The position numbers were made by a program, and so were the translations under genes. Below the pieces are notes generated by a model that worked only from the letters and a program-made list of their open reading frames with translations, ran no database searches and had not been told where the DNA came from. From contig WGMN01000001.1 in NCBI GenBank assembly GCA_016125035.1, positions 258,427 through 322,426 of the forward strand: a DNA stretch of 64,000 nt, given 5' to 3'. This DNA comes from Pseudomonadota bacterium. Its GTDB lineage: Bacteria > Pseudomonadota > Alphaproteobacteria > UBA2136 > UBA6156. Positions 32,178-52,431 of this stretch are shown here, piece by piece (position 1 is the stretch's first letter; each line of letters opens with the position of its first letter).

Positions 32178-32294
32178 GGCGGCCCTCCTTATTTTGCGAG
32201 AACGGAACGGGTGGATGGCCCGCCCTGGCGGGCGGCGTAGGCTCTTAAGACGTTAGATGCATACAGTTATTGCGGTAAAATGGCAAGGCGGCTT

Positions 32295-34064: not shown

Positions 34065-34073
34065 GGCCGGGCC

Positions 34074-34862: not shown

Positions 34863-34873
34863 TGCTGGCAACC

Positions 34874-35602
34874 CTACCGCAAGAATACCAGGAACAGCAC
34901 GCCTTTGTCGCCGGGCTGGCCAGCCGGGGCAAGGCGCAGGTTTTCCATGGAAGCAAAGCGCAGCACGCCCCACTCATCGGTTTTGGGAATGGTGATGGCC
35001 GGGAGGTTGACCTCGTTAGGTTTGGCGTACTCATTACGCACGTGCACCACCAGGCCGGTAAGCTGGGGAGATTGCCAGACCTCGGCGAGATCGAACATCA
35101 TGCCGTTGCCGCGGAACCAGTTGGGGATGACGTAGGTCTCGCGGTTCACTCCAGGGATGTCTTCATCCTGGGCCATGGAGCGGATGAGATCATGCGGGCC
35201 GAAGTTTTTGGAAATGTTACGCTTGACCTGGTCGAGCTCCAGCCCGTTGACGACTTGCAGGAACGAGCGGTAGGGCACGTCGGTGGTGAGCACCACGATG
35301 TAGGTGTTGCCCGATTGGCCGGTGAGGAACATGCGTGTGGCCATTTTGGGCAGCAGCGAGCGCATGCGGAAGGCGCGGTTGTTGTAGCCATCGACCACCA
35401 GGATATCGACGTAGCTGGGGTCTTCCAGCGTGACGTTGGTGATGGGTTCGGGGAATTCCACATGAGAGACGTCGTCTTGCGTCAGCCCGATGGTGAGGGT
35501 TTTGGTGGGCCCCTGCCACACCAGAGTATCGGCATGCAGCGCGGCAAAGGGCAGCGCCAGCAGGGCGAGGATGAGCAGGAGGGGGCGCAAGGCGTTCTTC
35601 AT
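34874..35602 (-). CDS. TraK/VirB9-like secreted protein
   Basis: 242 aa, the same length as F TraK, with a signal peptide and a β-rich body. It sits between the TraE-like gene and the lytic transglycosylase. Confidence 0.4.
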   Translation of the reverse strand: MKNALRPLLLILALLALPFAALHADTLVWQGPTKTLTIGLTQDDVSHVEFPEPITNVTLEDPSYVDILVVDGYNNRAFRMRSLLPKMATRMFLTGQSGNTYIVVLTTDVPYRSFLQVVNGLELDQVKRNISKNFGPHDLIRSMAQDEDIPGVNRETYVIPNWFRGNGMMFDLAEVWQSPQLTGLVVHVRNEYAKPNEVNLPAITIPKTDEWGVLRFASMENLRLAPAGQPGDKGVLFLVFLR

Positions 35603-36742: not shown

Positions 36743-37090
36743 TTACTGCACCGTGACCGTGCCGCACGTGCCCCCCAGGCTGCTGACGATGGGGCAGACG
36801 ATGCCGCGGAAACCGTTAAAGACCGTGGGCAGCATGGTGATGATGACCCCGCACAGAATAAGCACCATGCCAAAGCTGGTGTTGCCCTTGGCGCCTATGG
36901 TCCACACGCCGAGGAAGGCCACCGCCAGCCCGAAAGCCAGGCCCAGTTTGCCGGTGATGATGAGCTTGAGCAGTGCAAGCTCGGCACTGCCGACAGGTGC
37001 CTGGGCGGCCTCGGCCCAGCCCATGGAAACGGCGCCGATACCCAGAAGTATCAGCGCCGTAAAGAGGAGCAGGGTTGCGCGCGTTGGCAC
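36743..37090 (-). CDS. VirB2/TrbC-like T4SS pilin (paralogue 1)
   Basis: 115 aa. A signal peptide is followed by two hydrophobic helices separated by a short loop. Confidence 0.55.
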   Translation of the reverse strand: MPTRATLLLFTALILLGIGAVSMGWAEAAQAPVGSAELALLKLIITGKLGLAFGLAVAFLGVWTIGAKGNTSFGMVLILCGVIITMLPTVFNGFRGIVCPIVSSLGGTCGTVTVQ

Positions 37091-37110
37091 AGCTTAACCT
37101 TTGCCGCGGC

Positions 37111-37464
37111 TTAGCGGCCGACGTCTTGCACGGTGGTGGTGCTGCCGCCGAACTGAGTGAGCACGCCGGACGCGAGGTCATGCATACCGTTGAAGATGCC
37201 GGGGACCAGGGTGATGAGCACACCGCCGATGATCATGACGATGCCGGCGCCGGTCTCTTGCTTAACGATCCACGTCCACAGGCCGAGGATGGTGATGGCC
37301 AGGCCGATGAAGAAACCGATACTGCCGGTGATGGAATCCTGCAGGGTGCCGAGGATGGTGTTACCCGCGTCGGCGGCGTTGCCGGCGGCGAAAGAGGGCT
37401 CTACCACCGCAGCAAGCATGAGCATGGCAGCGGCCATTGCAAAGAAGGTATGACGATTGACCAT
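37111..37464 (-). CDS. VirB2/TrbC-like T4SS pilin (paralogue 2)
   Basis: 117 aa with the same architecture. It is clearly related to 36743-37090 (…LITLVPGIFNG… versus …IITMLPTVFNG…). Confidence 0.55.
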   Translation of the reverse strand: MVNRHTFFAMAAAMLMLAAVVEPSFAAGNAADAGNTILGTLQDSITGSIGFFIGLAITILGLWTWIVKQETGAGIVMIIGGVLITLVPGIFNGMHDLASGVLTQFGGSTTTVQDVGR

Positions 37465-37540: not shown

Positions 37541-39130
37541 TTATTTTTTGGCGGCGGAGGGGGTGTCGGTGACCACCAGAAGGTGAGATTTTTCAAACTG
37601 GGTAAAGGTTAGCGTGATGTTGTGGGCGGCCTTGACCTGCGCCGCCAATTGGGCCAGCACCTGTTGCACCGGCGCCTCAGCGGTGAGGGACCACTTTTCG
37701 GCCATAAGGTACTGGTTTTCTGGGGAAAGTTGCCAATCGGCCTGCCATTTCTCGCTGCCGTGGGCCGCCGCCTGTGCCAGCACGGCATCGGTGAGGCCTT
37801 GCAGCGACTGGTTTTTGGCGTGGACGGTGACCATGACGTCGTCGAGCGCCACCGGCCCGGCCGCGGGCTCTACCTGGTTGGCGTTGAGCATGTCGTGCAC
37901 AGATTGGCCGGCGCGCAGGGCCAGGGCGCGGTCCATCATGGTTTCAGCCTCGGCCTTAAGGCGCTCGGCTTCGCGCAGTTTGGCCTGTTGCTCTTGAATT
38001 TGGGCGGCGTTGGCGAGTTGCTCGGCCTCGGCGATCTTGGCTGCGGCGGCGGCGATGAGCTGGCGGCGGGAATCATCCGCCTGGGCCTCGGCCTGCTTGA
38101 GGTTTGTGCTTAGGCTGCTGATCTTGTTTTGGTAGGCCTTTTCCTTCTGGCCTTTTTCCGCTTGCAGCTGCTTGGCCAGGGCCTCGAACTCTTGCAGGCG
38201 TTTTTGCGTGGCTTCCAGCTCGTCTTGCAGTTGCGCCTCGTGCTGGCGGCGGGTGGCTTCTTCCGCGCTGGTTTGCGCGCGGGTGGTGGCGGCGCGTTCC
38301 AGTGTTTCTGCATGGCGGCGCTGCTCTTCCTGGATCTGGCGCTCGCGCTCGCGCAGTTTGGCCGAGAGTTGGGCGATGGTTTCTTGCTCTGAAGCCGCGC
38401 GTTTTTCGTCGGCGATGCGGGCCAGGTTGCGCGCGGCGGCGGCGTCGGCCTCGCCCATGCGGGCGGCGGCGGTGTTATCCACCGCTTGCCAGGTGCCGAG
38501 TTGCTCGACCAGGGGATCGACCTTGGGGGCGGGTTTTTGCTCCACCACGTGTTTGGGCAGGAGATCTTGCTGCGCAGGCGCCACCTGCGAGACCTTGGCC
38601 GCCGGTTGGCCGATGTTGCTGCCCGGTGCCATGGGCTTGGGCTGGGGCAGCTCTTCCTGCGGGTGGGCGGGAGGCATTTTGGCCAGCAGCTCGGACGCCA
38701 CCTTGACGTTGGGCAGGGCCGGCAGGCTGGAGGTGGCACGGGCGGGCAGCGGCGTGGGGGAATCGAAGAAGGTGAGCGCGATGGAGGGGTCGGCCGCGCG
38801 GGCGTCGGCGGCGGTGGAGCCGTCGAAGAGCATTTGCGCAGGCTCGCAGGGCTCGCCGTTGGCATCGTAGAGGTAGCGGTTGCCGGAGAGGCTGCCCTCC
38901 ACCATCACCCCCAGGCCGGGGCCGGAGCAGTCGGCCGTGAGGCCACCCACCGCCGCCGCCTGCAGCGAGCCCGGCACCATGGCCGAGCTGGCCAGCAGCA
39001 CGCCGCTGTCGGCGCCGCGGGGGGCGGGCGAGCCGTCGGCCAGCGTGGCGGAGCGCCCGGCGCAGCCACCGAGCACGGCAAGGCCGGCGATGGCCGCGAG
39101 CAACGCCGGAGTGGGGCGGACCTTTTGCAT
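37541..39130 (-). CDS. coiled-coil lipoprotein with conserved C-terminal domain (paralogue A)
   Basis: Lipobox LGGC, a long E/Q/A-rich coiled coil and the C-terminal stretch W..LSPENQ…QQ…ITLTF…LLVVTD. Confidence 0.6.
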   Translation of the reverse strand: MQKVRPTPALLAAIAGLAVLGGCAGRSATLADGSPAPRGADSGVLLASSAMVPGSLQAAAVGGLTADCSGPGLGVMVEGSLSGNRYLYDANGEPCEPAQMLFDGSTAADARAADPSIALTFFDSPTPLPARATSSLPALPNVKVASELLAKMPPAHPQEELPQPKPMAPGSNIGQPAAKVSQVAPAQQDLLPKHVVEQKPAPKVDPLVEQLGTWQAVDNTAAARMGEADAAAARNLARIADEKRAASEQETIAQLSAKLRERERQIQEEQRRHAETLERAATTRAQTSAEEATRRQHEAQLQDELEATQKRLQEFEALAKQLQAEKGQKEKAYQNKISSLSTNLKQAEAQADDSRRQLIAAAAAKIAEAEQLANAAQIQEQQAKLREAERLKAEAETMMDRALALRAGQSVHDMLNANQVEPAAGPVALDDVMVTVHAKNQSLQGLTDAVLAQAAAHGSEKWQADWQLSPENQYLMAEKWSLTAEAPVQQVLAQLAAQVKAAHNITLTFTQFEKSHLLVVTDTPSAAKK

Positions 39131-40527
39131 TAGTCGGAGATTACAATAATGCGGTCGTTGTCGAACAGGCTGAAGGTTATTTTTATGCCTCTCTCGTTGA
39201 CCAGATACTGCGCGAGGTAGTTTACGAACTGCTGGAAGCTGGTTTCCACGTCCAGGCTGAAGCGCTGGGTGAGGATGTCTTGGTTTTCAGGCGAGATCTT
39301 CCATTTGAGGCGCCAGGGACCGATGAAAGGTTCGGCACGTTTGACCACCATGGTCATGATGTCTTCCAGGGTTTTGGAATCCTCGTGCACCACCACGCGG
39401 TACTGGCGGATATCGACCCAGTCGGTATGGGTGCGGGCGGTGGTGAGGTTGGCGCTGCCGGGCAGCGGGCCGGAGGCCGGGGCGATGTTGGCGAGCTGTT
39501 TGTCGGATGGGATGACGCCCGGCGGCAGCGGCTGGGCAACTTCCAGCCCGGCAGAGGCGATGTTGACGTCTTGCTGCGCGGTGGCCTGGGCCTTGGCTTG
39601 CTGGGCGAGCTGGTCGTTGACCACTTTGCGGATGGCGAAGACGATGCGGTCGTCTTTCTTCACAGCGGTGGTGGCGGCCTCGGCCAGGGCCTTTTGCATG
39701 TCGGGGTCGGAATCCTTGACGGCGGTGCGGGCGATGGTGCGGATATAACCTTCTGAGTCTTTGACGCTTTGCAGGGCCAGGGCGCGCATTTGCGGGGCGG
39801 AGTCGGCCACCCGTTCGTCTACCAGCGTGGCAATGCCTGGTTGGGACGCGGAGACGGCCTGTTGGGCGATGGCCGCCATTTGCGGCATGGCTGAAGACAC
39901 CGTTTGCGCCGCGATGGCCTGGATGCGCGGCTCGGCCTGCTGGACCTGCCGGGCGGCGATGGCCGCGACCTGTTGCGGCTGGAGAATGGTTTGGCGCTGG
40001 GCCGCCAGCTGCGCCCGCGTGCCGGAGACCTGGTTGGCGAGCGCCGCCAGCTGGGTTTGCGTTTGCTCGCGCGTGAGGCCGACGATATCGCGCTGCGCGG
40101 ACAGCTGCTGGTTGACGGCTTGCTGGGTGCCGTTGTTGGCGCGCAGCACCTCGCTGGTTTGGCTGAGCAGGGTATCGGTGCGGTTGGCGAGGGTGTTAAA
40201 CCGCGCGTCGATATCGGCGATGGTTTGGCGTTTGACTTGCTCGGCCACCGTGCGCGCCACCTCTTCTGGTGTGGGGGGAGGCACCGCCGCCTGGCTGCGG
40301 GTGATGACCACCTTGCCGGTCATCGGCTGGGGAATATCGTATTGCGGGCCCTGGTTGCTGGCCACCTGCACCGGCTGGTAGACGGCGGGGAGATCGGACA
40401 GCGCGAGTGCGGGCGCAGGCGCCGAGTGCGTAGGCGCGGCACAGCCAGCCAGAACAAGGCCCAGGGCGGTGGCGGTACGGGCGTGGCGCAATGTCATCAT
40501 GACGATTCTGGCCAAAGTGTGCCTCAT
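39130..40527 (-). CDS. coiled-coil lipoprotein with conserved C-terminal domain (paralogue B)
   Basis: Lipobox LAGC, Q/A-rich repeats and the C-terminal stretch W.L.W.ISPENQ…QQF…ITFSLF…IIVISD, clearly related to paralogue A. Confidence 0.6.
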   Translation of the reverse strand: MRHTLARIVMMTLRHARTATALGLVLAGCAAPTHSAPAPALALSDLPAVYQPVQVASNQGPQYDIPQPMTGKVVITRSQAAVPPPTPEEVARTVAEQVKRQTIADIDARFNTLANRTDTLLSQTSEVLRANNGTQQAVNQQLSAQRDIVGLTREQTQTQLAALANQVSGTRAQLAAQRQTILQPQQVAAIAARQVQQAEPRIQAIAAQTVSSAMPQMAAIAQQAVSASQPGIATLVDERVADSAPQMRALALQSVKDSEGYIRTIARTAVKDSDPDMQKALAEAATTAVKKDDRIVFAIRKVVNDQLAQQAKAQATAQQDVNIASAGLEVAQPLPPGVIPSDKQLANIAPASGPLPGSANLTTARTHTDWVDIRQYRVVVHEDSKTLEDIMTMVVKRAEPFIGPWRLKWKISPENQDILTQRFSLDVETSFQQFVNYLAQYLVNERGIKITFSLFDNDRIIVISD

Positions 40528-40587
40528 GCGCCAAAAGCGGCCAATATCCGGCCCCCGGAATACACTACGGAGTGTGGGAAATGCACA

Positions 40588-40923
40588 TCAGCAGGTGATT
40601 AAAAAAAGGGCAGCGAGGGCGGCACCTGCGGCGCACGCCGCCTCTACCCACAAGCTGGCGGCGCCGATGGGCGTGCCGCAATGCCGGCAGCGGCCGCGCA
40701 GCGCCAGCCAGCTGAAGACGGGAATGAGATCGGCAACCCCCAGCACCGTGCGGCACTGGTTGCAGCTGCTGGGCGGGTGGCGCAGCGAGATGCCGCGCGG
40801 CAGGCGGTAGGCCGCGCAGGTGATGAAAGAGCCGAGCACGCCGCCAAACAGCGCGGCCACCAGCGGCCAGAACCAAGGCCAATGCTGGTGGATGGCGCAG
40901 GATGCCTGGAAAAACCAGCCCAA
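40588..40923 (-). CDS. prepilin peptidase N-terminal (zinc-binding) domain only; catalytic A24 domain absent
   Basis: GSFITCAAYRLP, SSCNQC and DLIPVFSWLALRGRCRHCG match the PilD/GspO N-domain. The ORF stops right after the second TM helix. No hydrophobic remainder is present in any frame downstream. Confidence 0.6.
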   Translation of the reverse strand: MGWFFQASCAIHQHWPWFWPLVAALFGGVLGSFITCAAYRLPRGISLRHPPSSCNQCRTVLGVADLIPVFSWLALRGRCRHCGTPIGAASLWVEAACAAGAALAALFLITC

Positions 40924-40934
40924 GGCCCCCTGCC

Positions 40935-42014
40935 CTAGCCGCAGGTGGGGTTTACCGCCGCGGTATCATCATTAACCGTGGTGATGCGCGCCGGCAGCTT
41001 GTTGGAGCCCGCGCCGGGGCGGGCACCGCAACCGCCGCCGGAGTTACGCGGGCGCGGGTTGCTGAAGTAGTAGAACGCCTTGGGTTCGTCATCGGTGCCC
41101 AGTTGCAGTGCCGAGCAGCAGAAGTCATCCGGCAGGCCGAGCAGGTGCATGAGGCCTTGCATGGCGCTGCGGCGGGTGGCGTCATTCTGGCTGTTATCCA
41201 CGTAAATGGTGGCGTTGTAGTAGGTGGCGGAGTCGGCCTGGGCGGCCACCGCCAGCGACTTGGGATAGTAGACGACCAGCTCGGGCGCGCCGTTATCGCA
41301 GGTGGCATCGCCGGTGAGGCCGGTGGCAGGGTCTTTCGGCAGGGCGTTGCAGGTAGCGATTTTGTTGGCGTAGGCGTTTTTGGAGTAAGACTCCAGCGAT
41401 TGGGCGACGCGGTCGAGGCGTTGCAGCGTGAGGTTGTAGCGGTCGAGCTTTTCCGGGTAGTCGGTGAAGCGGGTCATGATGTCGTCATCGGACGGTTGGA
41501 GTGCGCTGAAGGTTGAGACCTCTCTGCCCGAGAGGTGGGACCACCAGGTGACGTCGTCGGCCGCCGCGAGGGCCGTGCCCTGCACCGCGATGCCGGGACC
41601 GGCGGTGGTTTGCCCGTTGGGGCCCGAGGAAATGAGTGTGGCGTAGTAGATCTCCACCGGGCTGCCTTGCAGGTTGCGCGAAGGGTCTTTGTACATGATG
41701 TAGGAGCGCGGGCGGCCCCAGACGTCGTTCTCCATCTGGCTGGTGGAGAGGTTGGTGTAGCCGCCGAGATCGGTGAACCAGGTATCTTCAGCCGGCAGGA
41801 CGTTTTTATCGGCCAGGTAGGCTTGCAGGGCCTTGCGGATCTCTAGCTGGGTGTTCTCCTCGCTTTGGATGTCGCGCTGGCGGATGAACTGGAAAATGGC
41901 AGGTGTGCTGATGCTGACCAGCACCGCCAGCACCGCGATGACGATGACCATCTCTGCCAGAGTGAAGCCGCGGCGGCAGGAGGCAAGGGTAGAAGACAGC
42001 ATGGGCGTTTTCAT
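40935..42014 (-). CDS. large prepilin-type pilin/pseudopilin (359 aa)
   Basis: Class III signal RRG|FTLAEMVIVIAVLAVL with Glu at +5. Confidence 0.7.
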   Translation of the reverse strand: MKTPMLSSTLASCRRGFTLAEMVIVIAVLAVLVSISTPAIFQFIRQRDIQSEENTQLEIRKALQAYLADKNVLPAEDTWFTDLGGYTNLSTSQMENDVWGRPRSYIMYKDPSRNLQGSPVEIYYATLISSGPNGQTTAGPGIAVQGTALAAADDVTWWSHLSGREVSTFSALQPSDDDIMTRFTDYPEKLDRYNLTLQRLDRVAQSLESYSKNAYANKIATCNALPKDPATGLTGDATCDNGAPELVVYYPKSLAVAAQADSATYYNATIYVDNSQNDATRRSAMQGLMHLLGLPDDFCCSALQLGTDDEPKAFYYFSNPRPRNSGGGCGARPGAGSNKLPARITTVNDDTAAVNPTCG

Positions 42015-42947
42015 CTACAGGGTTCCTTTCAGGTTTATACTATAGCTTAAACTGGAGGCCGGGCTACCCCACGGGGTGGGAGAGGTGGCGTTGTTGGTGA
42101 GGCGCAAGGTGAGTGAGGAATCTGGGTTGGCGATGCTGGTAATGGCCAGCTTGCCGCCGCCGGGGAGGGTTTTTTCCAGCAGGCGGAAATCTTCGTCTAC
42201 CCCCAGCAGGCGGCGGTTGGCATCCACCGACAGGTCGAGAAAGCGCGGGGCGTTGGGATCGTTCGCCATCAACGTGGTGAAATCGAGCGTGAGGTTGGCG
42301 GAGCCGCTTTGCAGCTGGGTGAGGTATTGATTCATGATCGTGGTGCGGTAGGCGTTGACCTGCTCTTGGTAATAGCGCAGTTGCGCGCTGGCGATGCGGC
42401 CGAGGTGCTGGCGCACGTTGGCCCAGTTATCGCGCTGGGCGTCTTCATTGGTGAAGGTGATGACGATGTCGTCGGAGCCCACAGGCGGCAGGATGCCTTG
42501 CAGGGCGGAAATGCTGCCGACCGCGGGGATGGTGGTCTCCAGCTTATGGTTGGGGCCGCTGGAGATGAGCGCCACGCCGGTGACCGGCACCACCACCGTA
42601 TCGCTGGGGGGATTGCTGTAGAGCACGCGATTTTCGCGCACCATAAGGCCTTGCATGGGTTGGCCCCAGGGGTCGAGCGTGGGGTCGGCCCAGCGGCCGG
42701 TGCCGAGTTGGGCGAGATCTGGCGTGGTGCGGATGAAGGCGAGGATGTCGGTTTGGCTGGAGGGGGCGAGCTCGAAATTATCCAGGGTGATGTTCTGGGC
42801 CACTTTGCGCACCGCGTTCATGTAATCCTGTGCGGCGTCGACACGCATGCGCGACAGCTGGGCCGTGCTTTCTCCGGCACCCACGATGATGCCGCCCGTG
42901 ACTGACAGGAACAGCGAAAAAATGGCAAGGAACAGCATTGCCTGCAT
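42015..42947 (-). CDS. membrane-anchored periplasmic pilus-associated protein (310 aa)
   Basis: An N-terminal hydrophobic helix with no canonical prepilin cleavage motif. The start is translationally coupled to the upstream gene. Confidence 0.45.
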   Translation of the reverse strand: MQAMLFLAIFSLFLSVTGGIIVGAGESTAQLSRMRVDAAQDYMNAVRKVAQNITLDNFELAPSSQTDILAFIRTTPDLAQLGTGRWADPTLDPWGQPMQGLMVRENRVLYSNPPSDTVVVPVTGVALISSGPNHKLETTIPAVGSISALQGILPPVGSDDIVITFTNEDAQRDNWANVRQHLGRIASAQLRYYQEQVNAYRTTIMNQYLTQLQSGSANLTLDFTTLMANDPNAPRFLDLSVDANRRLLGVDEDFRLLEKTLPGGGKLAITSIANPDSSLTLRLTNNATSPTPWGSPASSLSYSINLKGTL

Positions 42948-43009
42948 GGGTGGAACCTCCTTTCTGGCCAGTTGCTTATACCGGCCTGCACCAGCGCCGA
43001 CTTACAGGG

Positions 43010-43594
43010 TTACTCCACCCCCGGAATACTGAGCCGGTGCAAACCGTAAATGCTTTTGAATTCCACGATTTTAGGGTGGATGGCGATGATGGTGAGATCG
43101 AGCGTGGGGTTGGCTTCCAGGCGCTTGTTAAGCTTGTTTTCCAGCAGGTTGGCGGCGTCGCTGTCGTACTTGCGCAGTTCATCGAGGGCGGCGTCGGCGT
43201 TCTGGGTGCGGGCAAGGGCCACGCGCACCTGGCTGCCGACCCCCATCCACTGGTTATATATCAATACTTTAGGGCCCGCCGCGCCATCTACCCGGCCGCC
43301 CATTTGCAGGCCCTGCAACTGCGGCTGGAAGGCGCTTTTGCTGTTGAGGATCTGCTCGGCCTGGTGCAGCGCCTGCAGGCGGGCGATGCGCAGGGCCTCG
43401 GCCTCGACGTCGAGGGTGGAGGAGACCTCCTCCACCTTAGCCTTAACTTGCGGGAACGGGCTGGGCTGGCCGCTGTAGGTGGGAACGACAGTGGCCGAGG
43501 TGGAGTTGGCCGCCTTCCACAAAATGATGCTTTGGCCCCACGCCAAGGGCGAGAGCAAAACCAGCGCGGCGACGAGGGCGAGGTGTTTGATCAT
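43010..43594 (-). CDS. periplasmic protein (GspC/PilP-like by position)
   Basis: Signal peptide MIKHLALVAALVLLSPLAWG. The assignment is by position only. Confidence 0.4.
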   Translation of the reverse strand: MIKHLALVAALVLLSPLAWGQSIILWKAANSTSATVVPTYSGQPSPFPQVKAKVEEVSSTLDVEAEALRIARLQALHQAEQILNSKSAFQPQLQGLQMGGRVDGAAGPKVLIYNQWMGVGSQVRVALARTQNADAALDELRKYDSDAANLLENKLNKRLEANPTLDLTIIAIHPKIVEFKSIYGLHRLSIPGVE

Positions 43595-44106
43595 GACGGT
43601 TGGCCCGGAGATTTTTTATCCAGCCCGTAGATCTTGCCGGTAAGGCGCATGTGCACCTTGTTTTTTTGCCCGTATGACGGTGTGAGCTGAATGAGGTTGA
43701 TGACGATTTTTTTGGTGTTGTGCAGGCGGTCGGCCAAATAGAGCGCGGTGGAGTAGTCGAGGTCGCCCTCGATGCTGACGTTGCGCACGTAGAGGTTGTT
43801 CTCGCCCACGGTGCGGACCTCGCGCGAATCAACCGTGAAGTTGATGTCGGTTTGCTCTAGCCCCAGGTGGCGCAGGATGTCGAGCTGGGTGGCGGTTTGC
43901 TCGTCGATGGTGAGTTGGTCGAGCTCGGTGAGGGCGGCGGACAGGCGCGCGGCGTTATCGAGCTCTTGGTTCAGGCGGGTGAGCTGGTTTTGGCGGGTGA
44001 GGATCTCTTCCTCGATACTCTGGCCGGAGAAAAAGATGAATGCCGAGAGCGCCATGAGCGCGGCCAGCGTGACGAGCATGATATTGCGGTAGGAGCTGCG
44101 GGTCAT
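43591..44106 (-). CDS. GspM/PilO-like bitopic assembly protein
   Basis: 171 aa with an N-terminal TM, a coiled coil and a small C-terminal domain. Confidence 0.45.
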   Translation of the reverse strand: MTRSSYRNIMLVTLAALMALSAFIFFSGQSIEEEILTRQNQLTRLNQELDNAARLSAALTELDQLTIDEQTATQLDILRHLGLEQTDINFTVDSREVRTVGENNLYVRNVSIEGDLDYSTALYLADRLHNTKKIVINLIQLTPSYGQKNKVHMRLTGKIYGLDKKSPGQPS

Positions 44107-45398
44107 TGCGGCACCTCGGTGGAGGAGGGTGGGGGTTGGGTGGGAAGCGCCGCAGGGGGAGCCACCGCCCCCGTGGCGGAGACCATGGTAAGGGAGGCCT
44201 CTGCCTGTGCCGTGGGCGAGACCGCGCGCAGGTCTTCAGCGGTGAGGGTGACCGAGACCTGCGCCTGCTGGAGCATTTGCGGGGTTGGTTTTTCCGCCCC
44301 CTCGGTTTGCACGGCGATGGAGAGTTGGGTTTGGTCGCCAGGCGTGCCGGTGCGTTGCAGCGTGCGCACCCACGGCTGGTTGGCGATGACGTGTTGCGCG
44401 CGGCGCTCTTGCGCGAAGAGCAGTTTATCCAGCGTGTGGTTGAGGATGATATCGACCGTCTCTTGCTGCGGAGCCTTCATGCCCGAGCGGGGAGAGTATT
44501 CCGCCGGGCTGAACTTGATTTGGGTGAGGTCGCCAAATTGGGCGGCGGTGCGGGCGGCGGCGTCTACGATGCCGGAGGGCTGCTGGTTGAAGGATTTGGC
44601 CATGCTGTCGAGCAGCTCTTGCGGGCGGCGGATGTGGCCGGTGCTTTGGTTGATCTGGATACTGTTGATGCGTTGCTGGGTTTGGGTGATCTCGCCCTCC
44701 AGCCGCGCGCGCTCGGACCAGTTGGTGAAGTAGAAGGCGGCGCTAGAGATAAGCAGGATGAGCCCGAAGAGACTGCCGGTGAGGTAGATGATGGTGTGGT
44801 CGAGGTGGCGGTAGAGCGGGCGCACGCCGGGCAGCGGCTTGAGGGTGGAGAATGGCACGGGGGTTATCTGGTAAGCCTCCAGCGCCACTTGCAGGGTGCG
44901 GTAGAGCTCGAGCTGGCTGAGCACCGCCACGCACAGGGTGGCGCCGGGGTTGGCCAACACATAGTCGGTAATGGCGTTGACGAGCGCGGCCGAGGCATCG
45001 GAGCCGGTGAGCACCAGTTGCGCGGTGCGCCACATTTGCTGGCCTTCGTCGGTTTGCTCGCGCACGCCGTGGATGATGACCTCGGGGCTGAGGACGTAGA
45101 AGAAGGCCTGGCAGTCGGCCGGGGCGAAATCCTCGGCCAGCCAGACTTTGACCGACTGGCGCATTTCGCGGATTTCGTCCGGCAGGTAGCCGTAGATGTA
45201 GCGTTGGCCGGAGAACACGCGGGCAAGTTGCGGCCCGCGTACCGGGTTGTTGCCCATTTGGCGCGCCACCTCGCCCACGCCGGCGAGGTCTTTGACCACC
45301 TGGATGTGGTCGCGGCCGGGCACCAGCAGAATGGTGGTATCGCCACGGGTCATCTGGCGGAAGGTGATGCTGCGGCGGGCGAGGACCATCAGGCTCAT
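44103..45398 (-). CDS. GspL-like (PilM-PilN-like) bitopic assembly protein
   Basis: 431 aa: a cytoplasmic domain of about 200 aa, a single TM (IIYLTGSLFGLILLISSAAFYF) and a periplasmic domain. Confidence 0.4.
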   Translation of the reverse strand: MSLMVLARRSITFRQMTRGDTTILLVPGRDHIQVVKDLAGVGEVARQMGNNPVRGPQLARVFSGQRYIYGYLPDEIREMRQSVKVWLAEDFAPADCQAFFYVLSPEVIIHGVREQTDEGQQMWRTAQLVLTGSDASAALVNAITDYVLANPGATLCVAVLSQLELYRTLQVALEAYQITPVPFSTLKPLPGVRPLYRHLDHTIIYLTGSLFGLILLISSAAFYFTNWSERARLEGEITQTQQRINSIQINQSTGHIRRPQELLDSMAKSFNQQPSGIVDAAARTAAQFGDLTQIKFSPAEYSPRSGMKAPQQETVDIILNHTLDKLLFAQERRAQHVIANQPWVRTLQRTGTPGDQTQLSIAVQTEGAEKPTPQMLQQAQVSVTLTAEDLRAVSPTAQAEASLTMVSATGAVAPPAALPTQPPPSSTEVPQ

Positions 45399-45400
45399 GG

Positions 45401-46486
45401 CTAGCGGTACTCCATAAGCGCGAAGATGGGGCCCACCAGCGAGGTATAGGTGGCGAGAATGAAGAAGGGCAGGAGCACGGCCATGACGATGAATTTAATC
45501 GTACTTGTGACCTGGCGTATATAGCGTTCAAGCTCAAGCTTATAGGGGGTTTGCAGGTCTTCCACCCGCTCGGCGATGGCGCCGGTGTTCTCGCCCGCCT
45601 GGATGGCGTTGACGAAGGAAGCGCGGAAAGGAATGGCGGAGACGGCGTAGCTCATGCGCAGGCCGTTGCGGTGATCTTCCGCCGCCGCAAGCAACAGGCT
45701 GGCCAGCACCGGGTTGGTGACGCAGCCGGAGAGTTGCTCGAGCACTTGATAGGTTGGCATACCCGACCTTACCAGCGCAGGCAGGAAGTAGACCACCACC
45801 ATGGCGTTAAAACCGACAATCAGTTTACGGCTGACCCCCCACCACAAGGTGAATTTGAGCCAGTAAGGGCGCAGGGCATAGGTGTTGCGGCAGAAAAACA
45901 GGGTGGTAGCCAGCACCAGCACCACAATGGGCTGGAACGGGTGGCTGCGCAGCCAGACCGAAGCCACCCAGAACCATTGCAGGATGAAGGGAAAAGAATT
46001 GTAAGACTCTGGCTTGCGGTCGAGCACCGGCTGGATGACCAGCGGCAACATGATGATGAGCACCCCCAGTGAGAGGATGATGAGCATGATGCCGATGCCC
46101 AGCGGGCCGGCCAGCTTCATCCACAACTCTCGCCGGCCCTGGTATTGAACCTCCATAGCCGACACCAGCGCGGGCACCGCCTGGCGCAGCTGGTTGCTGC
46201 GCTCGGCGGCTTCCACCACCGCCAGCTCTTGCGACTTGAAGCCCAGGCGGGCCTGGGAAATGGCCTGGTAGAACGGTGTTTGGCCGGCCTCCACCTCGCG
46301 CTGGACGAGATCCATTTGCGGGCCGAGGCTGGCGTATTCGTCATGACTGAAGGCCGCGCAGGTGTTGCGCACCGCCTCGGCCAGCGACATCTGCCCGGCG
46401 CCCGCGTTCAACCAGCCGGCCAGCGTCTTGAAAAAATCAATGCGGTCGGAGGTGGAGAGGGATGACTTGCCGATTTGCAGACCCAT
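45401..46486 (-). CDS. GspF/PilC-family inner-membrane platform protein
   Basis: Polytopic protein with two T2SSF-like repeats. Confidence 0.82.
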   Translation of the reverse strand: MGLQIGKSSLSTSDRIDFFKTLAGWLNAGAGQMSLAEAVRNTCAAFSHDEYASLGPQMDLVQREVEAGQTPFYQAISQARLGFKSQELAVVEAAERSNQLRQAVPALVSAMEVQYQGRRELWMKLAGPLGIGIMLIILSLGVLIIMLPLVIQPVLDRKPESYNSFPFILQWFWVASVWLRSHPFQPIVVLVLATTLFFCRNTYALRPYWLKFTLWWGVSRKLIVGFNAMVVVYFLPALVRSGMPTYQVLEQLSGCVTNPVLASLLLAAAEDHRNGLRMSYAVSAIPFRASFVNAIQAGENTGAIAERVEDLQTPYKLELERYIRQVTSTIKFIVMAVLLPFFILATYTSLVGPIFALMEYR

Positions 46487-46547
46487 GGAGGCCCAGTTTC
46501 ACTCTTTTTTTGTTTGGCACGGCCGGCCGTATGGCCTGCTGCTTGGC

Positions 46548-48359
46548 CTAGGTTGCCAGTGTTTCGGCTGAAAGTTCAAGGATTTTCGTCGAGAGCTCGG
46601 CGGCGTCGGTGATGCCGGACTTGATGTGCTGGGCGCCCATCCGCCCCATTGGCTGCCAACCGGCACGGCGGGCCATGTCTTCCAATTCCGTGTAGTTGCG
46701 TTGCGCGCTTGCCTCAATGATTTCACGCGTGGGCTTGAGCCACTCGGCCACCGCGATGCGGCTGTAGTAACCGGTGAAGTTGCAACTGGCGCAGCCTTCC
46801 GGGTTGGCGACGTGCAGGTCGGCGCCCTCGAACGACACGCCGTAGCGGTCGAAAACATAGCGGGTGTAGTCATCCGGCGTGGGTTGCTTGATGCGGCAGT
46901 GGGTGCACAGGCGGCGCACCAGGCGCTGGGCGGCGATACCGCGCACGTATGACAGCATGAAGCCGTTGATGCCGAGTTCGTCCAGCCGGGAAATGGCGTC
47001 GAGCGAGGTGTTGGTGTGCAAGGTGGTGAACACCAGGTGGCCGGTGTTGGCGGCCTCGAACACCAGGCCGGCCATTTCGGGGTCGCGGACTTCGCCGAAG
47101 ATGATCACGTCTGGGTCGGCACGCAGGGAAGACTTGAGCAGTTGCAGGCCGGTGCGGGCAGGGTCTTCGTTGGAGACTTCCATCTGCACCGCGTAGCCGG
47201 GCACGCGTTTTTCAGGCGGGTCTTCGATGGTGTGCACGGACAGCCCCTTGGCCATGGGATTGACGCTGATGACCGCGGCGTGGATGGACTCGGTTTTACC
47301 CGAGCCGGTGGGACCGGTCCAGAAAATGATGCCGTTGCTGGCCATGGCCGCTTGCTTGATCTTATCGATGAACTCTGGCGTGTAGCCGATGACTTCCAGC
47401 GGCATGACATCCGGTTGCAGGCGGCGCAGCACGATGCGCGGCACCGGGCCCAGGCGGCCCGCGTGAGGCTGGATTTGCACGCGCCAATCGTAACCCGAGC
47501 GGGTGAAGGCGCCCTTGTTGGCGTGGTTGAGGTTGACCTTGGGCATGCGCGCCAGGTTTTCGATACGCACGCGCAGTCTATCCAGTTGCTCGGTGGTGAT
47601 GACCTCCTTGGGGTGCACGAAGCCGTCGATGCGGTACTTGATGATGGCGCGCGGCTCGCCCTTGATGGAGGGATCGATGTGGATGTCTGACGCGCGGGCG
47701 TCGATGGCGTTGGTGACCACGCGGTCGAGCAGGGCCTCGGCTTCCATGCCGGAATCGATGCTCTCGGATTCTCCCGACAGCCAGAAGGCGCCCGCGACCT
47801 CGCGCAGGCAGAAGTGCCAGTGCAGGTTGACCCCGTTGGCGAAAAACTCGCGGAGCTGGGACTCCAGCACCAGGTCGCGGGTGGGGCTATCGTGCGCCAG
47901 GTGGATATCGGTGACTTGCTCCTGCTCGTCTTTTTTGATCGCCAGCGGGATGATGCGCTCGCGCCGCAGCAGGGTTTTGAGGCGCGCGGGAAGATCTTGC
48001 CGCAGAGTGTAGGACTCTGGCGGGATATCGAGGATGGAGAGCAGCTCCCTCGATTTATGCGCGCGGGCGATGGCGCGGGCCAGTTGCAGGCGGGTGATGA
48101 CACGTTGGGTGAGGAGCTCCCGCGTGAGGAGTTGTTTGTTCTCGCCGCTTTTGAGCACCTCTTCCAGGCGCTTTTTGGCGACGTTGTCGATGCCGAGATC
48201 GACCGATGCGTTGAGAACTTTTAGGACGTTTTGATAGAACGCGTCGCGGTTGGTGGCCTCCAGGTTGGGGGGAGAATCTTCGGATACCGGGATGTAATCG
48301 GCGATGCCAACGGGCGCCCCGAGGGGGGCGCCAGCGTAATCTTCGGCTGCGGGTGGCAA
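46548..48359 (-). CDS. GspE/PilB-family secretion ATPase
   Basis: Walker A GPTGSGKT, Asp and His boxes, a tetracysteine motif (CxxC…CxxC) and an N-terminal N1E-like domain. The start is uncertain; a TTG at 48359 is the first start codon after the upstream stop. Confidence 0.85.
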   Translation of the reverse strand: MPPAAEDYAGAPLGAPVGIADYIPVSEDSPPNLEATNRDAFYQNVLKVLNASVDLGIDNVAKKRLEEVLKSGENKQLLTRELLTQRVITRLQLARAIARAHKSRELLSILDIPPESYTLRQDLPARLKTLLRRERIIPLAIKKDEQEQVTDIHLAHDSPTRDLVLESQLREFFANGVNLHWHFCLREVAGAFWLSGESESIDSGMEAEALLDRVVTNAIDARASDIHIDPSIKGEPRAIIKYRIDGFVHPKEVITTEQLDRLRVRIENLARMPKVNLNHANKGAFTRSGYDWRVQIQPHAGRLGPVPRIVLRRLQPDVMPLEVIGYTPEFIDKIKQAAMASNGIIFWTGPTGSGKTESIHAAVISVNPMAKGLSVHTIEDPPEKRVPGYAVQMEVSNEDPARTGLQLLKSSLRADPDVIIFGEVRDPEMAGLVFEAANTGHLVFTTLHTNTSLDAISRLDELGINGFMLSYVRGIAAQRLVRRLCTHCRIKQPTPDDYTRYVFDRYGVSFEGADLHVANPEGCASCNFTGYYSRIAVAEWLKPTREIIEASAQRNYTELEDMARRAGWQPMGRMGAQHIKSGITDAAELSTKILELSAETLAT

Positions 48360-48384
48360 GGGAAGGGCGATAGCCGGACCCCCC

Positions 48385-49047
48385 TTATTGAACCGTGTTG
48401 GCGGCGTAGCACACGTTAACAACGGAAGCTGAGCCAAGCGCGCCAGGAGTGGGAGCCGCCGCACCCGAAGTGGCGGGCAGGCAGTCGCTGCCGGTGGGTT
48501 GGTACACCAGGCGGCCTTGGGTGGGGTCTTCCGTGCCGTCGATGGTGCGGTCGGCCTCTTTGGCCTCGGTGAGCGGCATGCTGGAGAACTGGACGATCAT
48601 ATAAACATTGGTGCCGGTAAGCCCCCAGTTGGACGCGGTGCCGGGCATTTGGGTGACCGTGCCGCCGGTGCCGTAGCCGTGGTTGACGCTACCGCCGCTG
48701 ACCGCAAAACCGGGCAGCAGGTTGCGCAGCTCGGACTCGCGGATGTTGCTTTGCCAGGTGACGCCCGACGGCAGCGCGTTGGCCAGGGCCAGCATGTTGT
48801 TGGCGGCGCTGACCGAAGAGATAGCCTCGTGCGGCCAGACGCGCTGGGCGGAATAGAACTGGCCGTTGGCGTCTTCGATCTGGCGGAATTGCGAGCCCAG
48901 CTTGGTGCCGCTGGTGCGGTTGATGAGTTGCCAGCCGATGGTGACGATGATGAGCGTGATAAGGATGGCGATGATGGCGACGATGAGGATCGTCTGGTCA
49001 ATCGTATAACCCTTGCGGTTAGCCAATAGCTTTTGAAAGCGTTGCAT
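48385..49047 (-). CDS. prepilin-type pilin with atypical cleavage region (RKG|YTIDQT…)
   Basis: A short basic leader and a hydrophobic helix ILIVAIIAILITLIIV. It has Asp at +4 and Gln at +5 instead of Glu at +5. Confidence 0.55.
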   Translation of the reverse strand: MQRFQKLLANRKGYTIDQTILIVAIIAILITLIIVTIGWQLINRTSGTKLGSQFRQIEDANGQFYSAQRVWPHEAISSVSAANNMLALANALPSGVTWQSNIRESELRNLLPGFAVSGGSVNHGYGTGGTVTQMPGTASNWGLTGTNVYMIVQFSSMPLTEAKEADRTIDGTEDPTQGRLVYQPTGSDCLPATSGAAAPTPGALGSASVVNVCYAANTVQ

Positions 49048-49123
49048 GAGAGGAACCTCCATTCCTGTTTGTATCGAAGCTAGCACAAGCCAAAACCGAC
49101 TCCCCCTAAAAACAGCGGGGGCG

Positions 49124-51169
49124 TTAATTCAGCCGTTTGACCTGTAGCAAAACTACAAACTCCACTTCTTCGAAGGAAATGCCCTGCTCGTTGGCCAGTT
49201 TGCCCAGCGCCGGAACCTCGCGCAGCAGGGGAATGCCGGACTCGGTATCCACCGCCACGGTTTTGGTGAGGCCGCCGATAACCTTGATCTCGCCGTCGCG
49301 GATACGCACCTTCTGGTCGATGAGGCGGGTGTTGGCCACAGGTGCCACGCCCGCGGTGGTGCCGCTGACGCCGCCGGGGATATCCACCGTTTTGGCCAGA
49401 GAGGTAATGGGGATTTGCAGCGAGATGGTGTTGGGCTCGGAGGGGTTATCGCTGATTTGCGCCGTGGCCGAGAATTGCAGCCCGATGAACTGGTTGCGCT
49501 CTTGCACGTCGGAAGCGGTGCTGGTGGCCGTGCCGGTGGTGGTGGTGGACTGAATAATAAAATATTTTTCGTTGCGGCCATCGATGAGGGTGGCGCGCTG
49601 ACGGTCCATCAGTTCCATCATCGGGTGCATCAGCTCGTAGGTGGTGCCGTATTGCTCGAGCAGGCCGATGACTGCATCCAGGTTGGGGCCTTCGGCACTG
49701 ATGCCGCCCACGGTGGTGAGGTTGGGCGCGGTATAAGTGGCAAGGTCACGCGAGAGGGCCGAGGTGATGCTGCCGATGAAGCTGCCGCTGAGCGCGGCCC
49801 CGCCCTGCTCGCCGCCCACACGCAGGCGGGCACGCTGGTCGAAGTTGCGGGTGCGGCTGACCGCCAGCACACGCGCTTCCAGCAACAGGCGGCGGCTGGC
49901 GATTTCCTGCACGCGGTTGATGATATCGCTGGCTTCTTCCAGCACCGAGCGGGGGGCACGCATTTGCACCAGGCCCACGGATTTGTTGATGCGCACGTAG
50001 CCGCAGCGGTTGCTGTCGGAGTCATTGTCGGCGCTTGAGGATTGCTGCGCGTTGGGCGTGCTGGCGGGGATGGGCATGAACATGTTGGTGTTGGATGCCG
50101 TGGATGACTTGTCTTTATCCTTGCTGTTGCTGCTGGTGGGCGGCGGCAGCAGCTGGGCGGAGGAAGGCATGCCGACCGTTTGCACGTCTTCGGAGTGTTG
50201 GGTGCAGTTGCTCTTGATGAGTTGGTTGAGGTCATCTTCCAGGTCGACCCAGAGGTTGCGCTGGTAGTGAACCTTGACACTGTTGCTGCCGCCAGCCGCG
50301 GTGCTGCTGCCGTCGGAGCCGCTTGAGCTGCTTGAGGAACCGCTGCTGCTGGAGTTGCCGCTGGAGAAATCGGTGGAATAGTTGACCGAGATATTTTCAT
50401 CCCGTTCGGGTTCGTAGAGGTTGACCGTCCATTGGCGTTGGGGCAGGCCGCCGATGGTGACGTAGTCACCCGCGTTGATGAGGCTGAGGCCGAAGGGGGT
50501 GAGCAAGGCCTCGAAAGCATCGTAACATGTTACATCCTTGAGGTTTGTAGTGATGCGGGCAGACGAAAGTTTGTCTTTGTTCTCGGTGATGACCAGGTTG
50601 TAGTTGCACTGCTCGGCCAGGCCGCGCAGGGCTTGCGAGAGGCTGACGTTGGGGCCGGGGTTGAAGCTGGCCAGGCGCGGCTCGGAGGCAGAGGGCAGCA
50701 CGAGGAGGCGGCGCTCGCCCTCTTTAATGATTTGAATATCAAACACATCTTCGATGTAGCTGCGGGCTTCGTCGAAGGTGAGGTTGTTCATCAAAACTGT
50801 TTTGTGGCGGGAGCGGCGCACGCCGTTGCCCCAGCGCACGGCGACGTTGTAGGTGCCGGCAAGTTTTTGCAGAACAGTTTCAGTGTCATACTGGCCGGAG
50901 AGGGTGAAGGTGGCGTTGGCGGCCATTTGGCGTTGCGAGATGGGTTCGCCCATGCCGAGCACGCTGGCATTGCGTTGATTTTCAGTCTCATAGTCTTTGT
51001 AGGGGTTGGCCGGCGAGTTGCGTTGCACGTAGGAAATGCTGTTGCAGGCGCTGAGTGAAACCAACACGATAGCCAGCAAAGCGGCGGCTACAGAGCGCGG
51101 CAGAACGCTGCCGATGGCGGCAAACGGGCGGCAAAGAGCGGCGGCAAAGCTGCGGAAGGCGGCCATTAT
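49124..51169 (-). CDS. secretin (GspD/PilQ family) lipoprotein
   Basis: Lipobox LSAC, a Ser-rich linker and the C-terminal secretin motif GIPLLREVPALGKL. Confidence 0.85.
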   Translation of the reverse strand: MMAAFRSFAAALCRPFAAIGSVLPRSVAAALLAIVLVSLSACNSISYVQRNSPANPYKDYETENQRNASVLGMGEPISQRQMAANATFTLSGQYDTETVLQKLAGTYNVAVRWGNGVRRSRHKTVLMNNLTFDEARSYIEDVFDIQIIKEGERRLLVLPSASEPRLASFNPGPNVSLSQALRGLAEQCNYNLVITENKDKLSSARITTNLKDVTCYDAFEALLTPFGLSLINAGDYVTIGGLPQRQWTVNLYEPERDENISVNYSTDFSSGNSSSSGSSSSSSGSDGSSTAAGGSNSVKVHYQRNLWVDLEDDLNQLIKSNCTQHSEDVQTVGMPSSAQLLPPPTSSNSKDKDKSSTASNTNMFMPIPASTPNAQQSSSADNDSDSNRCGYVRINKSVGLVQMRAPRSVLEEASDIINRVQEIASRRLLLEARVLAVSRTRNFDQRARLRVGGEQGGAALSGSFIGSITSALSRDLATYTAPNLTTVGGISAEGPNLDAVIGLLEQYGTTYELMHPMMELMDRQRATLIDGRNEKYFIIQSTTTTGTATSTASDVQERNQFIGLQFSATAQISDNPSEPNTISLQIPITSLAKTVDIPGGVSGTTAGVAPVANTRLIDQKVRIRDGEIKVIGGLTKTVAVDTESGIPLLREVPALGKLANEQGISFEEVEFVVLLQVKRLN

Positions 51170-52431
51170 TGGACTCCCCTGAAGCCGAAGCGGTCGGCGC
51201 CGGTGACGACGATGAGTTTGCCGCCGGGGAAAATCTCGTACCGCAGGCCGAAGATTTTGAGAATACGCTCGATGGCGGTGCCGAACGGCTCTTCCACGTG
51301 GGCGGGTTTGAGCACCTGGTCGGTACCGGCGTACATGCGCAGGCGCCACTGGCCTTTGCCGGCCTGGTTGACGATGTTCTCCAGCGCGTCGACCAGGGGG
51401 ATCTCGTCGTAGTGGATGCTGATCATGCTGTCCTTCAGCACCGATTCGGTGACCGCGACGTCGGCGCCGCCGGGGGCCTTGCCGCCGATGCCGACAGAAG
51501 CCGAAGAGGAATCGCCGCCGACGCGGTCGGTGATGACCAGGCGTTGGGTGTTCTCATACTTAATGACGCGCAAGGGCTGGCCGGAGCGGGTTTGCAGGCG
51601 GGCAAGCAGCGCGTTGAGCACTTTGACGAAGGGCTCTTCCGCGTAAATGCTGATCTCCATATCCGGCAGGCCGGCGTTGGATTCGTCCAAGTCCCACACC
51701 ACGGCCCAGGTGCCGGCGCCGAGTTGGTCCATCATGCGTTGCAGGGCGCGGCGCACGGAGATGCGCTCTTCCTTAAGGCGCACGATGCCGTGCTGGAAAT
51801 CCACCCCGCTGGCGGCGCTGGCGGTGGGCGTCGCGCCAATGGCCAGCTCTTGCCCGCCATCGGTGATGGGCATTGGCTGGGCAGCCATGGGTTGTTGCGC
51901 AGGCGCGGCCGGACGGCCGGCCGCGGCGGGCGCGCCGCCGGTGGCCAGCGAGGGGTAGTCCTCGAGCGAGCGGGGAGACTTGGTGTTTTGCGCCATTTGC
52001 ATGCCGTCGATATCGTCGCCGGAGGAGCCGCCGCCGGCGAGCAGGCCAGGGTCTTGCCCGATGCGGGCGATCTCGCTCTGGGTATCTGGCACGCCGTTGG
52101 CCATGGTGTTGAGCGCTTGCTCGTACTGCTGGCCGCCGGGGTTCTTTTGCGCGTAGAGGGGGCGGTATTGGTCGCCGGAGGAGGATTTCCAGTCGGCGAG
52201 TTCGCCTTCCGTCTTGGCGCGAAGCTCGGTGTGTGCGGGCACGTAGACGCCGCGGGTGTCATCCACATAGGGCTGCACCGGCGTTTCGGTGACCGGGGCC
52301 ACGTAGCCGGGAACCACAGGGGGAGGAGAGGCCAGCGCCGCCTGAGCGCCAAGCAGCGCAAGACCAAGGGCGCCGCCCAAAGCAGTGCGGCTGAGCGGAG
52401 ACGGGGGGAACCTTAAAAAGGATTTCGGCAT
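51166..52431 (-). CDS. periplasmic secretin-partner protein with STN-like / paralogue C domain
   Basis: Signal peptide and a Q/A/P-rich region. The C-terminal ~70 aa resemble the C-domains of the two coiled-coil lipoproteins (WRL…LIVVTG). Confidence 0.5.
   Translation of the reverse strand: MPKSFLRFPPSPLSRTALGGALGLALLGAQAALASPPPVVPGYVAPVTETPVQPYVDDTRGVYVPAHTELRAKTEGELADWKSSSGDQYRPLYAQKNPGGQQYEQALNTMANGVPDTQSEIARIGQDPGLLAGGGSSGDDIDGMQMAQNTKSPRSLEDYPSLATGGAPAAAGRPAAPAQQPMAAQPMPITDGGQELAIGATPTASAASGVDFQHGIVRLKEERISVRRALQRMMDQLGAGTWAVVWDLDESNAGLPDMEISIYAEEPFVKVLNALLARLQTRSGQPLRVIKYENTQRLVITDRVGGDSSSASVGIGGKAPGGADVAVTESVLKDSMISIHYDEIPLVDALENIVNQAGKGQWRLRMYAGTDQVLKPAHVEEPFGTAIERILKIFGLRYEIFPGGKLIVVTGADRFGFRGVQ

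Follow-up and report, generated by a model that had tools for sequence, protein, structure and literature searches.

In a 64,000-nucleotide stretch of the alphaproteobacterial metagenome-assembled genome (MAG) GCA_016125035.1 (contig WGMN01000001.1, positions 258,427 to 322,426; hereafter the window), three proteins, designated P1, P2 and P3, share a domain of about 90 amino acids (aa) that occurs in four copies and is very probably a diverged module of the TcpQ/BfpG type. P3 carries two of these copies in tandem and is encoded next to a secretin, while P1 and P2 are lipoproteins with one C-terminal copy each. The favoured explanation, to which we assign a probability of roughly 0.6 as a whole, is that P3 would form the hoop of the secretin and that P1 and P2 would act as additional, membrane-tethered secretin partners. 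The proteins and domain copies concerned, in window coordinates, are the following.

37541-39130, minus strand: P1, a 529-aa lipoprotein with a Cys-containing N-terminal region, a Pro-rich linker, a helical spacer of ~195 aa and a C-terminal TcpQ/N0-like domain
37565-37831, minus strand: domain copy of P1, residues 434-522 (BLASTP to P2; hhalign to P2, P3 copy A and the TcpQ/BfpG reference)
37871-38458, minus strand: helical spacer of P1, residues 225-420 (0-1 Pro+Gly and 71-80% A/E/Q/K/R/L per 56-aa segment)
39130-40527, minus strand: P2, a 465-aa lipoprotein combining a variable helical region rich in Q/A with a conserved helical block and a TcpQ/N0-like domain at the C-terminus
39133-39399, minus strand: domain copy of P2, residues 377-464 as modelled, with the protein ending at D465
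49124-51166, minus strand: secretin, a lipoprotein and the putative docking partner (MAAFRS..., LSAC; Pfam Secretin 3e-19 plus Secretin_N_2; lipobox by reading)
51166-52431, minus strand: P3, a 421-aa secreted non-lipoprotein whose conserved N-terminal domain is accompanied by a tandem pair of TcpQ/N0-like domains
51202-51426, minus strand: P3 copy B, residues 336-410, diverged and C-terminal (same topology at a predicted local distance difference test score, pLDDT, of 55-78; hhalign)
51529-51786, minus strand: P3 copy A, residues 216-301 (pLDDT >90; BLASTP to P1 and P2; Pfam TcpQ 18.9 bits)
52054-52293, minus strand: N-terminal domain of P3, residues 47-126 (pLDDT up to 93; many invariant residues)

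The three proteins correspond to the NCBI hypothetical proteins GC129_01540 (P1), GC129_01545 (P2, 465 aa from the first ATG and 456 aa as annotated) and GC129_01600 (P3, whose longest open reading frame, ORF, extends to 52539 and encodes 457 aa), all located on one 461,513-bp MAG contig.

Homology among the copies is supported at several levels of comparison. In BLASTP, the C-termini of P1 and P2 align over 89 aa (E=1e-13, 29% identity, 56% positives), and P3 matches P1 at E=3e-6 under compositional adjustment and P2 at E=1e-3, the matching segment of P3 being internal (residues 238-302 of 421 aa, or 274-338 of the 457-aa ORF). Family profiles were built from orthologues of P2 (n=21), P1 (n=68) and P3 (>179), and the excised domain columns were compared by hhalign, which related P1 to P2 at 99.8% (E=9e-28), P1 to P3 copy A at 96.4% (E=1.4e-9) and P2 to P3 copy A at 94.5% (E=7e-8), with P3 copy B reaching 87% to P1, 72% to copy A and 42% to P2. 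Leave-family-out hidden Markov models (HMMs) applied to the complete set of 673 stop-to-stop ORFs in the window brought back the other family proteins and nothing else: the P1 HMM matched P2 at 3e-21 and P3 copy A at 2.4e-7, the P2 HMM matched P1 at 3e-15 and copy A at 5e-3, and the copy A HMM matched P1 at 6.6e-6 and P2 at only E=0.32. P3 copy B gave no significant match in these HMM-versus-sequence searches. A combined HMM recovered exactly four copies in three proteins and no fifth copy anywhere in the window, the N-domains of the secretin itself included. The copies measure ~88-95 aa, and all except P3 copy B carry, relative to BfpG, an insertion of 8-10 residues (the short 'SPENQ' helix) between strands 2 and 3.

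The possibility that only P1 and P2 are homologous, with the resemblance of P3 being compositional or convergent, could draw on the low pairwise identity of P3 to P1 and P2 (24-31%), the modest P2-P3 BLASTP value and the weak response of P2 to the copy A HMM. It is nevertheless hardly credible and largely refuted by the compositionally adjusted P1-P3 match, the hhalign values above 94% for copy A against both families, the P1 HMM match to P3 with no comparable false match among the 673 ORFs, and the identical predicted topologies described below. A sequence-only reading of this DNA had proposed a C-terminal domain of about 60 aa common to the three proteins, clear between P1 and P2 and weaker at the end of P3. 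The homology of the P1 and P2 C-termini is firmly upheld by BLASTP, hhalign and both HMMs, and the pairwise similarity of P1 to P2 and to P3 goes beyond shared composition. The shared domain likewise stands, but at about 90 aa and in four copies; the similarity of P3 is real, but its best match lies inside the protein and its true C-terminus is the diverged copy B.

AlphaFold models assign the domain an N0-type fold (beta-alpha-beta-beta-alpha-beta-beta, ~80-90 residues), with identical predicted topologies, copy B of P3 sharing the topology at lower confidence than copy A. Fold matches comprise BfpG (the TcpQ homologue), the N0 domains of secretins, Legionella DotD and Xanthomonas VirB7, and further the signalling domains of FpvA, FecA and PupA and phage baseplate hubs. 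Among the matches listed there was no PilP/GspC homology-region (HR) domain chain and no pilotin chain of the PulS/AspS, MxiM or PilF/TadD types. At the sequence level, TcpQ (PF10671) alone among Pfam families showed a link to these proteins, matching 21 of the 44 P3 orthologues at E<=0.01 (best E=1.4e-5, best score 25.5 bits). A small TcpQ/BfpG reference profile was made by hand from eight sequences (BfpG from pMAR2 and seven annotated plasmid TcpQ-family proteins; a further one, from Acidovorax, was not included). Against this BfpG/CofC/TcpQ reference, hhalign gave 87% for P1, 85% for P2, 61% for P3 copy A and 31% for copy B, and the four families combined reached 95.7% (E=8.4e-9) with the whole domain in register. 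Since UniRef already names one P1 orthologue (P0168) and one P3 orthologue 'Toxin co-regulated pilus biosynthesis protein Q C-terminal domain-containing protein', the TcpQ assignment is not new for these two. P0168 (UniRef100_A0A6N4R0P2) itself gave no PF10671 match here even at E<=10, and a different InterPro signature or another version of the model may be the source of its UniRef name.

The earlier guess of a secretin-interacting domain of the TcpQ or DotD type therefore fits the N0-type fold, the sub-threshold Pfam match, the comparison with the small TcpQ/BfpG reference profile and the position of the P3 gene. Its PilP-type variant is not borne out by the fold matches listed, and nothing was found in favour of an interaction with a pilotin.

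Gene position is most telling for P3. The stop codon of P3 overlaps the ATG of the secretin gene in TAATG, with one base shared, so that P3 is translationally coupled to the secretin and occupies the classic tcpQ/bfpG position directly upstream of it; P1 and P2 do not lie in this position. As read from the sequence, P3 has an ordinary signal peptide (..AQAALA|SPPP), and the secretin, which starts MAAFRS..., carries the lipobox LSAC and therefore belongs to the lipoprotein secretins of type IVb. In the cryo-electron microscopy structure of BfpB-BfpG, 17 copies of BfpG form a 17:17 hoop around the lipoprotein secretin, strands beta3 and beta5 of BfpG pairing with two strands of the linker between the lipidated N-terminus of the secretin and its N0 domain; disruption of these contacts stops pilus biogenesis, and BfpG is set apart from pilotins (PMC12531336). 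Homology, fold and gene position make P3 the probable equivalent of this secretin partner. In type IVb pilus systems, a module of this type rings the periplasmic part of the lipid-anchored secretin by edge-strand pairing and promotes its assembly, a role for which P3, a secreted protein encoded immediately ahead of the secretin and translationally coupled to it, would be well placed. With its two tandem copies, P3 could build a double hoop, a stoichiometry that we infer.

P3 is better conserved (47-69% identity) than P1 or P2. Its N-terminal domain contains the invariant residues PxGYVAP...Y.DDTRG..P.H, and a weak WXG100 match in the N-terminal part of P3 was rejected, as it lay below threshold (E about 1e-3) and appeared in just 1 of 44 orthologues. 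Between its N-domains (~residues 270-300), the secretin (680 aa) contains an extended low-complexity run rich in Ser/Gly, SSGNSSSSGSSSSSSGSDGSS, and ahead of the secretin core lies a second stretch, rich in Ser/Asp.

When the four-copy window profile was searched against 1.84 billion representative proteins, just 211 clusters were recovered at E<=1e-3, 205 of them at E<=1e-10, which defines a sharply delimited sub-family. In addition to P1-, P2- and P3-like proteins, it contains ~60 short proteins of 150-270 aa. About 20 of these are lipoproteins ending in ...ISD or ...VTD; the only such locus examined, P0254 (219 aa), is a P2 orthologue without spacer in the same locus position. Another ~34 short sequences (160-260 aa), mostly non-lipoproteins, end in ...SDTYY and lie directly upstream of a gene starting with a lipobox in 3/3 readable contigs (L005, 10001-12297; L023; L025), the downstream gene in L005 being a full-length 564-aa secretin located away from type IV secretion genes. 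For all nine reference TcpQ-family genes (bfpG and eight plasmid genes), the next gene downstream is likewise a secretin gene or one that takes its place. Where it stands alone, the P2-type domain thus occupies the tcpQ/bfpG position. The suggestion that the domain is a module specific to this gene cluster is consequently not supported: other genomes encode this sub-type in short single-domain proteins whose genes directly precede that of a lipoprotein secretin, and the window domain is a diverged branch of a widespread family. On their other side, the SDTYY genes adjoin a DUF1294 gene in two of the three loci, away from other pilus genes.

P1 and P2 present the module in a different setting. 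Their lipoboxes, LGGC (Cys23) in P1 and LAGC (Cys29) in P2, are conserved within the respective families, and the P2 stop overlaps the P1 start in TAATG, so the description of the two as tandem lipoproteins holds. The P1 and P2 genes are located ~9-10 kb downstream of the secretin. In P2, a conserved helical block (DYIRT.AR..V.D.DP.M...VVFAIRK) is present, and domain and protein finish together at an invariant ...SD. After the lipobox, P1 has a conserved region (residues ~40-125) with invariant cysteines (D-C..GPGLG ... NGEPC ... FDG).

The spacers of the two proteins differ in character. Residues 225-420 of P1 are almost without Pro and Gly and consist to 75-80% of A/E/Q/K/R/L, and their 3.5-residue hydrophobic periodicity is not significant (z<=1.3 in a crude Fourier test), whereas residues 183-336 of P2 are amphipathic and strongly periodic (z up to 5.3 in the same crude test) and are interrupted by regularly spaced prolines, resembling short helical repeats. 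The earlier description of both as coiled coils is accordingly no more than loosely right, as P1 lacks significant heptad periodicity in this crude test and P2 is broken by prolines, for which reason 'helical spacer' is the safer term. Full-length Pfam/NCBIfam matches of P1 and P2 to SMC, Rad50 and TrlF were set aside as coiled-coil noise, and a Peptidase_C70 match in the same scan as spurious. Orthologues of P1 are near-constant in size (461-529 aa), with a spacer of nearly constant length, while those of P2 range from 219 to 1028 aa, with a spacer from none to about 800 aa; this great variability suggests that the P2 spacer is a flexible tether rather than a ruler. An essential heterodimeric coiled coil between P1 and P2 is also unlikely, because a 219-aa P2 orthologue exists without spacer and the P1 spacer stays constant. 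The size range of the P2 orthologues (P0230, P0244 and the 219-aa P0254 among them) results from expansion of the helical region, which in long forms shows tandem units of ~17 aa ('..AIRkVA..TV...D...') with regularly spaced prolines.

Under the favoured explanation, the module, which P1 and P2 bear on the tip of a long helical spacer, would dock on the secretin assembly or on the P3 ring, while lipid anchor and spacer would tie the assembly to a membrane. That the two proteins dock and tether in this manner is a tentative proposal, somewhat short of even odds, and both the docking on the secretin and the membrane that would hold the anchors are points we infer. Another reading takes P1 and P2 as envelope tethers or spacers whose N0-like domain would bind something other than the secretin, such as peptidoglycan, the inner-membrane pilus platform or each other, so that their analogy to TcpQ would be a loose one. 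The long spacers, the range of P2 spacer lengths, the extra conserved Cys-containing region of P1 and the many partners of N0-like domains would agree with it; yet the homology of the domain with P3 copy A and the secretin-adjacent short proteins is clear, and no peptidoglycan-binding family was detected in the Pfam scans of P1 and P2, which makes this reading improbable.

The rival that deserves most attention concerns the neighbouring secretion genes, for the P2-P1 pair stands at the end of a pilus block and adjoins an F-like type IV secretion block. P1 and P2 could be outer-membrane core lipoproteins of that F-like system, analogues of VirB7 or DotD and not pilus parts, an arrangement with which their architecture (a lipid anchor and a C-terminal N0 domain, which in those analogues rings the core complex) agrees. 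Among 185,579 species genomes, P1 was found in only 17, every one an uncultured MAG; one carries the label Magnetococcales, the others Alphaproteobacteria or Proteobacteria. A P2-type gene abuts P1 in 19/19 loci that have sequence upstream of P1. Where the contig is long enough, the order pilus genes-peptidase fragment-P2-P1-VirB2-TraL-TraE-TraK-SLT-UvrD is kept, with two exceptions. In L014, P1 is followed by DksA, a hydrolase and MnmG, and the pilus-side peptidase fragment (A24N) is still upstream; in L019, it is followed by an S41 protease, a deacetylase, NUDIX and RmuC. As housekeeping genes follow P1 in both, the module border lies immediately downstream of P1, and the P2-P1 pair belongs with the pilus genes. 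Instead of being encoded within and inherited with the type IV secretion genes, the pair stays on the pilus side where secretion genes are not adjacent, and elsewhere it precedes an F-like block that opens with a pilin-like gene, as in F-type operons. That block has its usual start (pilin, TraL, TraE, TraK-like) and includes TrbI/VirB10 as well as another gene at the place of traV. Furthermore, the closest relatives of the P2-type domain are the short secretin-coupled proteins, and nothing else comes as close to the domain in sequence as TcpQ/BfpG. Taken with the exceptions L014 and L019, these points render a VirB7/DotD-like role unlikely, though less so than the tether reading. A combined arrangement, in which the heads of P1 and P2 would clamp the secretin as physical couplers while their anchors, spacers or the P1 Cys region engage the F-like secretion machine, is a quite doubtful idea, considered slightly less probable than the tether.

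Several observations weigh against the explanation of P3 as hoop and of P1 and P2 as additional partners. The score of window P3 copy A against PF10671 (18.9 bits, E=1.6e-3) falls below the gathering threshold of 27 bits, neither the P1 nor the P2 domain gives any match to this model, even at E<=10, and a PDB sequence search with the four-copy profile did not bring up BfpG; its matches, designed proteins and a deformylase only, were dismissed. P3 copy B is modelled at low confidence. The P2-P1 pair directly abuts secretion genes in most loci. N0-like domains also occur in type IV secretion complexes (DotD, VirB7), TonB-dependent signalling and phage baseplates, and since they serve so many systems, the fold alone does not fix the partner.

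In appearance, the locus is a chromosomal resident, with a plasmid or recent island less likely. The 68 homologues of P1 all come from uncultured Alphaproteobacteria or metagenomes. Searches of P1 and P2 against 72,556 plasmids gave no match by blastn or tblastn, so this is not a known plasmid system, and a mobile-element origin seems less likely in view of the absence of a visible integrase, the dnaK/dnaJ and RNase PH flanks, and the conservation of gene order in 17 species-level MAGs. The window has a G+C content of ~62%, and the flanks of the locus are housekeeping genes, with dnaK/dnaJ at 7-11 kb and RNase PH at 62.9 kb. In the window (~17000-61000) and in loci L001-L022, a type IVb-like pilus block is situated inside an F-like type IV secretion block.

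The genes of P1, P2 and P3 are parts of a single long minus-strand array. It runs through P3, the secretin, a 233-aa ORF, a T2SSE-type ATPase, a T2SSF-type platform protein and four unknown genes, continues with a 359-aa protein bearing a prepilin N-methylation motif, the peptidase fragment of 111 aa, P2 and P1, and proceeds after P1 to two TrbC/VirB2-like genes, TraL, TraE, a TraK-like gene, a lytic transglycosylase (SLT) and a UvrD-like helicase. TrbI/VirB10 and TraC/VirB4 genes follow further along the secretion block, and a coupling-protein gene lies at 56671-58131, on the other side of the array. The two features that border the P2-P1 pair are given here.

40588-40923, minus strand: 111-aa protein with the prepilin peptidase N-terminal domain only (A24_N_bact E=2.6e-26)
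37111-37464, minus strand: first TrbC/VirB2-like gene, the start of the F-like block (PF04956 E=1.7e-7)

The 111-aa protein consists of a Cys-rich N-terminal peptidase domain without the aspartyl-protease domain, and its gene is found directly before P2 in every related locus that reaches this point, as the last recognisable pilus gene. The two tandem VirB2/TrbC-like genes (36743-37464, minus strand) encode 117 and 115 aa; only the first has a Pfam match, and both are kept in most related loci. A plus-strand ORF at 32280-35135 (951 aa) was rejected as a shadow ORF of the minus-strand TraK-like, SLT and UvrD-like genes, having no Pfam match itself whereas the opposite genes are conserved in related loci.

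The domain itself, as a TcpQ/BfpG-type module, is already known. New are its presence in four copies, the tandem arrangement in P3, the two tethered lipoproteins with a highly variable P2 spacer, and the placement of the pair at the seam of a conserved pilus and type IV secretion locus in an uncultured lineage. The assembly and anchoring of type IVb secretins has been seen at atomic detail only recently, with the 2025 BfpB-BfpG structure, and a lineage with four copies, two in tandem beside the secretin and two on lipid-anchored tethers of unlike lengths, offers a natural experiment that could show how many rings a secretin carries and how membranes hold it. It also provides a handle on a conserved but uncharacterised pilus and F-like type IV secretion locus of uncultured Alphaproteobacteria. 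If the tethers link both machines, a new principle would emerge, in which pilus and secretion system form one chromosomally fixed, co-inherited envelope organelle in this lineage, perhaps with the secretin shared as an outer-membrane conduit; if not, the finding would amount to a modest extension of the TcpQ family.

Among known systems, several types of protein carry related domains in other contexts. N0/STN domains of secretins and TonB-dependent transducers are located within the channel protein itself, unlike the copies of P1, P2 and P3. The DotD and Xanthomonas VirB7 lipoproteins are much shorter than P1 and P2, lack a helical spacer and are encoded within secretion operons, and no sequence similarity of the window domain to them was detected. 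The secretin partners of type IVb pili in PF10671 (BfpG, TcpQ, CofC and LngC) are single-domain proteins of about 130-170 aa. P3 departs from BfpG and TcpQ by its two tandem copies and its additional N-terminal domain, P1 and P2 do so as lipoproteins of 465-529 aa (up to 1028 aa among orthologues) that do not adjoin the secretin, and the window copies other than P3 copy B contain the 8-10-residue insertion, with Pfam scores remaining sub-threshold. An organizational parallel is provided by the R64-type thin pilus clusters of plasmids and integrative elements, in which a pilus cluster likewise stands alongside a transfer apparatus and the PilL-position proteins (275-356 aa) carry a TcpQ domain in their C-terminal part and are encoded upstream of a lipoprotein secretin of the PilN family. 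In contrast to the window, these clusters each contain one TcpQ-domain protein, with no paired paralogues and no long helical spacer of this type known, and the secretion systems alongside them on R64-type plasmids belong to the mating-pair formation classes MPF_I and MPF_T, whereas that of the window follows an F-like gene order.

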